From Escherichia coli (GTDB taxonomy: Bacteria > Pseudomonadota > Gammaproteobacteria > Enterobacterales > Enterobacteriaceae): 64,000 nt of DNA. Location of the stretch: NCBI RefSeq assembly GCF_030013205.1, contig NZ_CP122648.1; one strand, written 5' to 3'. This document shows, one piece after another, positions 7,479 to 9,227 of this stretch (position 1 is its first letter; each line of letters opens with the position of its first letter). The notes beneath the pieces are model-generated. The model searched no databases and had not been told where the DNA came from. It saw nothing but the letters and a program-made list of their open reading frames with translations. The position numbers were made by a program, and so were the translations under genes.

Positions 7479-8531
7479 TTACCCGCGACGCGCTTTTACT
7501 GCATTCGCCAGTTGACGTAACAGAGCATCGGTATCTTCCCAGCCGATGCAGGCATCAGTGATGCTCTTGCCATAGGCCAGCGGTTCCCCACTCTCGAGGC
7601 TCTGATTGCCTTCCACCAGATGGCTTTCCACCATCACGCCAATAATGGCCTTTTCGCCACCGGCAATCTGCTGGCAAACGTCAGCACAAACATCCATCTG
7701 CTTTTTGAATTGTTTTGACGAGTTAGCATGGCTGAAATCGATCATCACCTGTGCTGGCAGGCCTGCTTTGTTCAGCCCTTCTTTCACTTCAGCAACGTGC
7801 TTCGCGCTGTAGTTAGGCTCTTTACCACCGCGCAGAATGATATGGCAATCGCCGTTACCGCTGGTATTCACAATCGCCGAATGCCCCCATTTCGTTACGG
7901 ACAGGAAGCAGTGCGGCGCACCGGCGGCATTAATGGCATCGATAGCCACTTTAATCGTACCGTCGGTGCCATTTTTGAAGCCGACCGGACAAGAAAGACC
8001 AGACGCCAGTTCGCGGTGCACCTGCGATTCCGTAGTACGTGCGCCAATTGCCCCCCAACTCATCAGGTCCGCGAGATATTGTGGGGTGATCATATCGAGA
8101 AATTCACCCGCTGCTGGCAAACCGCTGTCGTTAATATCAAGCAGCAATTTACGGGCAATACGCAGACCGTCGTTGATCTGGAAGCTGTTATCCATATGCG
8201 GATCATTAATCAGCCCTTTCCAGCCCACCGTTGTACGCGGCTTTTCAAAATAGACGCGCATTACGATTTCCAGCTCATCTTTCAGCTCTTCACGCATCGT
8301 CAGCAAGCGAGTGGCATACTCTTTTGCTGCGACAGGATCATGAATTGAGCATGGGCCAATCACCACCAGCAGGCGATCATCATTACCTTTCAGGATCTTA
8401 TGGATCGCTTTTCGGGCATGGGCAACCGTATTCGCGGCATTTTCAGTAGCGGGGAATTTTTCCAGCAATGCGACAGGAGGAAGTAACTCTTTGATTTCTT
8501 TGATGCGTAAATCGTCGTTCTGATAATTCAT
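7479..8531 (-). CDS. aroG: Phe-sensitive DAHP synthase
   Basis: 350-aa ORF matching recalled AroG (MNYQNDDLRIKEIKELLPP...). Confidence 0.95.
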   Translation of the reverse strand: MNYQNDDLRIKEIKELLPPVALLEKFPATENAANTVAHARKAIHKILKGNDDRLLVVIGPCSIHDPVAAKEYATRLLTMREELKDELEIVMRVYFEKPRTTVGWKGLINDPHMDNSFQINDGLRIARKLLLDINDSGLPAAGEFLDMITPQYLADLMSWGAIGARTTESQVHRELASGLSCPVGFKNGTDGTIKVAIDAINAAGAPHCFLSVTKWGHSAIVNTSGNGDCHIILRGGKEPNYSAKHVAEVKEGLNKAGLPAQVMIDFSHANSSKQFKKQMDVCADVCQQIAGGEKAIIGVMVESHLVEGNQSLESGEPLAYGKSITDACIGWEDTDALLRQLANAVKARRG

Positions 8532-8601
8532 GTCTGTTCCAGTGTTGCCATACTTATCTTAGTGAATGCAATACTTCCAATCTATATCTTCCGTCAGAAT
8601 G

Positions 8602-8619
8602 TGTAAACGGGGTTTTACA
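8602..8619. promoter_or_regulatory. TyrR box upstream of aroG
   Basis: TGTAAA-cggggt-TTTACA, a perfect match to the TyrR consensus TGTAAA-N6-TTTACA, about 70 bp upstream of the aroG start. Confidence 0.7.
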
Positions 8620-8846
8620 CTATGAACGGATTAATCCTGGAATTAGCAAGAAAAACGCCAGATTGTCGCGAAAAACGAGATCTCTCCTACAATTTCTAAC
8701 TGTAACTCCTTTGTTTGTTAATTATTTCAAGATTCTCTGCTGGGTATCTTTGCCTGGCTGAAATCTTAAACCATTGCCTTATATTCACCTGCAAATGCAC
8801 TGTTGGAAGAGGTTATCCGACATAACGACCATAACAGGAGCATCCT

Positions 8847-9227
8847 ATGAAAATGACAAAACTGGCCACACTATTTTTGACTACCACTCTAAGCCTTGCC
8901 AGCGGTGCCGCACTGGCTGCCGATAGCGGAGCGCAAAGCAATAACGGCCAGGCAAACGCCGCAGCTGATGCGGGCCAGATAGCCCCTGATGCCCGTGAAA
9001 ATGTCGCGCCAAATAACGTCGACAATAACGGGGTAAATACCGGTTCTGGCGGCACAATGCTGCATCCGGATGGTTCTTCAATGAACAATGACGGCATGAC
9101 CAAAGATGAAGAGCACAAGAACACCATGTGCAAAGATGGTCGCTGCCCGGATATCAATAAAAAAGTCCAAACCGGTGATGGCATCAACAATGATGTCGAT
9201 ACCAAAACCGACGGTACCACGCAGTAA
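8847..9227 (+). CDS. ybgS: Small secreted/periplasmic protein YbgS (signal peptide, Asn/Gly/Asp-rich)
   Basis: 126-aa ORF with N-terminal signal peptide (...[11 protein letters not shown]); position between aroG and zitB as in K-12. Confidence 0.8.

Follow-up and report, generated by a model that had tools for sequence, protein, structure and literature searches.

At tyrP, a weak TyrR box is paired with the strong one. The strong tyrP box lies over the -35 element and represses transcription by blocking the access of RNA polymerase, and in the akr-ipdC region of Enterobacter cloacae TyrR binds cooperatively to adjacent strong and weak boxes (PMC4374768). A strong TyrR box has been defined by at least 10 of 12 matches to the consensus and by an invariant G and C located 14 bp apart (Coulson & Patten 2015, PMC4374768). 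The same source, citing Baseggio 1990, describes the aroG operator as a strong, consensus-perfect TyrR box that overlaps the -35 element and at which repression occurs with phenylalanine and tryptophan; its discussion ascribes the low and constant expression of aroG to competition between TyrR and RNA polymerase. Phenylalanine is also named as co-repressor for aroG in PMC4174253. Moreover, aroG is stated to be among the TyrR targets identified by genomic SELEX, and ATP-domain mutations influence both Phe- and Tyr-mediated repression of aroG (PMC5791370).

We analysed a 64-kb stretch of Escherichia coli DNA, hereafter the window, to which all positions refer unless K-12 is named. At 8602-8619 its plus strand reads TGTAAACGGGGTTTTACA, and the minus strand, which is the aroG sense, reads TGTAAAACCCCGTTTACA. 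This 18-mer agrees with TGTAAA-N6-TTTACA at 12 of 12 positions with 0 mismatches, exactly as the initial annotation had read it, and both the invariant G (8603) and the invariant C (8618) are present, 14 bp apart; with 12/12 matches, the site lies above the limit of 10 that defines a strong box. No other exact match occurs in the whole window. None of 100 dinucleotide-preserving shuffles contained such a match (mean 0, max 0), and only 0.0035 exact sites per window are expected from base composition. Sites with at most two mismatches numbered 3 in the window against 2.6 expected, which is not significant. Since the looser matches occur at chance level, the signal lies in the exact match and in its position. 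Two such looser sites were considered: one at 56031-56048, in the nei/pxpA area (TGGAAAAATGAGTTAACA), which carries two mismatches and retains the G-N14-C pair, and a second, also with two mismatches, at 60827-60844. Their number is consistent with chance.

The gene adjoining the site is aroG (7479..8531, minus strand), encoding the Phe-sensitive DAHP synthase, as had been proposed from the sequence; this assignment is based on the open reading frame, on the identity of its product to K-12 AroG (348 of 350 amino acids) and on RefSeq annotation. RefSeq genomes with 100% identity to window positions 8450-8900 carry the annotation aroG. In the record of strain K_EC180, galM and gpmA are found on one side of aroG and ybgS, zitB, pnuC and nadA on the other. 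The two residues in which the product departs from K-12 AroG are adjacent, A78T and L79M (codons 78-79, window 8295-8300). Given the minus-strand orientation of aroG, the box lies upstream of it, at -88 to -71 relative to the ATG, within a 315-bp intergenic region that is common to the divergent gene ybgS.

No second or weak TyrR box was found in the aroG-ybgS intergenic region, where the sites with four or fewer mismatches are devoid of the G-N14-C pair. One consensus-perfect box upstream of aroG with no second G-N14-C box fits a single-box operator. The locus resembles tyrP in the placement of a strong box over the -35 element but differs from it in having one box only and in responding to phenylalanine and tryptophan. 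With akr-ipdC of Enterobacter cloacae it shares the regulator and the consensus; however, the boxes are paired there, and the aroG-ybgS region has no such partner. All together, we estimate at about 0.95 the probability that 8602-8619 is the aroG operator, a single strong TyrR box whose proximal half is the sigma70 -35 hexamer.

The palindrome might also be read as the target of another regulator in place of TyrR, for example CRP (TGTGA-N6-TCACA) or TrpR, given that its TGT..ACA ends look superficially like CRP half-sites and that TrpR co-regulates other aromatic-pathway genes. However, the site gives no CRP match with three or fewer mismatches, and its pentamers would be separated by N8 rather than N6; the intergenic sequence that comes closest to a TrpR operator is located elsewhere and carries 7 mismatches; and every consensus position of the site is that of TyrR. 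The CRP and TrpR readings were therefore rejected on spacing and mismatch counts, and we regard recognition by any regulator other than TyrR as exceedingly improbable.

Comparison with K-12 MG1655 bears directly on the identity of the TyrR box. Over about 220 bp upstream of aroG and through its start codon, the two sequences are identical, which covers the box with its flanks, the promoter with both its -35 and -10 hexamers, and the 5' UTR. In K-12 (NC_000913.3) the same 18-mer occupies 785545-785562, with the ATG at 785633; the alignment that had been proposed as a check on the initial annotation therefore finds the 18-mer unchanged at the corresponding K-12 position, and a displacement of the box in K-12 was not seen. 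The two operators are also alike in their description, namely a consensus-perfect box over the -35 with Phe/Trp-dependent repression (PMC4374768). The RefSeq K-12 record lists no regulatory feature over the aroG stretch, only coding sequences, and the site was accordingly identified from the literature. A full-text literature search returned no match to the exact 18-mer on either strand, nor to the wording 'single TyrR' in combination with aroG, and the reviews and comparative papers searched do not give TyrR box coordinates for aroG. Equating the site with the described operator depends on the secondary description of Baseggio et al. 1990 in its citing paper, together with the uniqueness of the sequence. 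Differences between this strain and K-12 appear only farther upstream, in the ybgS 5' UTR, and in the two AroG residues, with none in the operator or promoter. Six substitutions are located in the ybgS 5' UTR (window 8743-8752 and 8774), five of them within 10 bp; in the aroG sense, the window has CAAAGATACC where K-12 has TTATGAAACG. Outside these positions, the alignment of window 8520-8850 shows no difference from K-12 over the remaining ~300 bp.

The published K-12 transcription start site (TSS) allowed us to place the box relative to the promoter. Kim et al. 2012 (PMC3415461 Table S1) mapped the aroG TSS at 784815 (+ strand, older coordinates) with 385 reads and a 41-nt 5' UTR, and give the -50 to +1 sequence as TAGTGTAAAACCCCGTTTACACATTCTGACGGAAGATATAGATTGGAAGTA. 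Transferred to the window, where the sequence is identical, this start is the A at 8572 (minus strand), with a 41-nt 5' UTR at 8532-8572. A consensus promoter scan of the aroG strand found TTTACA (8607-8602, 5/6), a 17-nt spacer and TAGATT (8584-8579, 4/6). With the TSS at 8572, scan and published start together place the -10 hexamer TAGATT (8579..8584, minus) at -12 to -7, the -35 hexamer TTTACA (8602..8607, minus) at -35 to -30, and the TyrR box (8602..8619, no strand assigned) at -47 to -30. It follows from this placement that the aroG-proximal arm of the box is itself the -35 hexamer, and the distal arm TGTAAA (8614..8619, minus) lies at -47 to -42, outside the core promoter hexamers. The spacing of 17 nt is within the 16-18 nt required of a sigma70 promoter (aroGp), and the TSS falls 7 nt after the -10, within the required 5-9. 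The box is thus found in the promoter of a TyrR-regulon gene, overlapping the core promoter at its -35, an arrangement compatible with repression. PMC4374768 is inconsistent on this point, its introduction placing the aroG box over the -35 and its discussion over the '-10 element'; the sequence and the TSS data support the former. The claim of a known TyrR repression of aroG through this box is supported by the description in that paper, by the K-12 identity and by the position over the -35.

The same start sites bear on whether the repeat could act in RNA, as a hairpin, terminator or attenuator. It is a perfect 6-bp inverted repeat, but its stem is A/T-rich and lacks a T-run, and a search of window 8400-8900 gave no terminator-like site. 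Moreover, both the aroG start (8572, minus strand) and the ybgS start (8702, plus strand) lie downstream of the repeat, which is thus part of neither mRNA. We therefore rejected this reading on the terminator search and the TSS positions; its likelihood is practically nil.

The ybgS start itself is weak. In K-12 it was mapped with 6 reads and a 145-nt 5' UTR (PMC3415461 Table S1), and its transfer gives 8702 (plus strand) in the window; a candidate ybgS -10 element, TACAAT, was read from the sequence at 8688-8693 (plus). TyrR activates some promoters from upstream boxes, and with its centre at about -91.5 from this start the aroG box might additionally activate or modulate ybgS from upstream. 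Nevertheless, TyrR-dependent ybgS expression appears in no source examined, the distance is greater than that at ipdC, where 33 bp separate the centre of the upstream box from that of the -35 (PMC4374768), and the start is, as stated, a weak one. We thus consider a role of the box at ybgS, in addition to its role at aroG, to be unlikely.

Conservation of the operator was examined within and beyond the species. A 66-nt segment comprising the -10, the box and 21 nt upstream was 100% identical in 5347 of the 5425 complete E. coli genomes containing the segment. Across species, we scanned one genome per species with degenerate 5' aroG codons (MNYQNDDLRIKE), a query pattern biased to Enterobacterales, which yielded at least 120 loci (L002-L121), and 119 of the loci listed had enough upstream sequence. 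Both arms were perfect (12/12) in 89 of these 119 Enterobacterales species among the loci listed; the perfect boxes lay 85 to 94 nt before the ATG, in most cases at -88. The 6-nt spacer took 32 distinct sequences among the box-bearing loci and the immediate upstream flank of the box varied as well; the -10 hexamer was near-invariant in 87 unique box-bearing upstream sequences. Conserved arms around a free spacer, as expected of a TyrR box, are therefore what the loci listed display; the information-content profile anchored on the box is circular for the arms themselves. Every sampled Enterobacteriaceae genus had a perfect box, as had Rahnella; these genera include Citrobacter, Enterobacter, Klebsiella, Raoultella, Salmonella, Kluyvera, Buttiauxella, Cedecea, Kosakonia and Leclercia. 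A single mismatch was seen in E. albertii (L004, TGTAAG), in Chimaeribacter (L045) and in one Rahnella (L089). Only the proximal TTTACA is kept in Serratia, Yersinia, Rouxiella, Ewingella, Hafnia, Pantoea and Winslowiella, in which the distal arm was either lost or never present.

These lineages bear on the reading in which TTTACA is nothing but a sigma70 -35 element, its TGTAAA partner 6 nt upstream being a coincidence to which no regulator binds. The proximal arm is indeed the -35, and Serratia, Yersinia, Pantoea and Hafnia, which have TTTACA but no distal arm, indicate that the promoter is possible without the palindrome. However, a chance partner is hard to reconcile with a distal arm that stays perfect in 89 of the 119 species while the spacer takes its 32 forms and the upstream bases vary, with the 0.0035 exact palindromes expected per window, or with PMC4374768, which assigns TyrR repression to the consensus-perfect box. 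Its role as a -35 would be enough to conserve the proximal arm, so that only the distal arm provides independent evidence; the distal arm is kept in Enterobacteriaceae and missing in the genera that retain TTTACA alone, which shows selection on the palindrome and not only on the -35. Of the results obtained here, this contrast between lineages speaks most strongly for a functional distal arm, and a merely coincidental partner appears highly improbable.

A sigma54 -24/-12-like element, CTGGCGTTTTTCTTGCTA, was also observed at 8661-8644 (minus strand); it is oriented toward aroG and lies upstream of the TyrR box, at a distance of 24 nt. The same motif underlies a low-stringency sigma54 ChIP-seq peak centred at 784715, classed as 'outside gene, sense' with aroG as the downstream gene (Bonocora et al. 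2015, PMC4591121 Table S2), and an RpoN-holoenzyme gSELEX peak falls in the ybgS/aroG spacer (Shimada et al. 2021, PMC8743547). Sigma54 binding at this spacer is thus published data and not new. The main text of PMC4591121 makes no mention of aroG, ybgS or a TyrR box beside a sigma54 site; aroG was not found in its table of sigma54-responsive genes (Table S4), in which ybgS is down 2.6-fold on sigma54 expression in a delta-rpoN strain. Sigma54-like motifs numbered 36 in the window against 44 expected, hence not above chance, and of the 119 loci listed only those of E. coli and E. albertii retain the TTGC half of the element. These two grounds, the confinement of the TTGC half to Escherichia and a motif frequency at chance, led us to reject a conserved sigma54 promoter. 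TyrR belongs to the enhancer-binding-protein family, and K-12 TyrR has no GAFTGA motif after ESELFGH. It is very unlikely, in our view, that TyrR, without GAFTGA, gates a second aroG promoter dependent on sigma54 or interacts with it, or that bound sigma54 holoenzyme modulates the sigma70 promoter; a sigma54 transcript from the element would be expected to begin near 8634 and would have to traverse the TyrR box at about +16 to +33. Elsewhere, an antisense intragenic sigma54 ChIP-seq peak in nadA, at K-12 781947 with the motif CGGGTATTCTTCTTGCAA (PMC4591121 Table S2), would correspond to about window 11440 by coordinate transfer from K-12.

For the aroG operator, the following mechanism is suggested. 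A TyrR dimer on the palindrome would cover -47 to -30, and the bound protein would compete with sigma70 RNA polymerase for the -35 region. Transcription of aroG would then be lowered when phenylalanine or tryptophan, acting as co-repressors, is plentiful. Because there is no neighbouring weak box, repression would be independent of the cooperative, tyrosine-induced binding of a hexamer to paired sites. The initial annotation, which had named TyrR repression in general, can be refined to this extent: the co-repressors reported for aroG are phenylalanine and tryptophan, and the box is single, with no weak partner. The sequence, its uniqueness, the K-12 identity, the position over the -35 and the phylogenetic conservation were observed here; TyrR binding, its dependence on phenylalanine or tryptophan as effectors and the competition model come from the literature, and we infer that the same mechanism operates in the present strain. 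The tyrR gene is outside the window, so that its presence in the source genome could be judged at the species level: a K-12 tyrR query matched 5415 of 5426 complete E. coli genomes, and tyrR is thus very likely present.

The aroG TyrR operator is already known and ordinary, and the initial annotation had indeed expected the box and offered it as a positive control for motif reading, which it proved to be. Its value is that of a control only: a textbook operator can be read from the raw sequence of this window, and the motif calling and the gene assignment of the earlier reader were reliable here. The comparison across species adds one small point, that the aroG TyrR box is a feature of the Enterobacteriaceae together with Rahnella.
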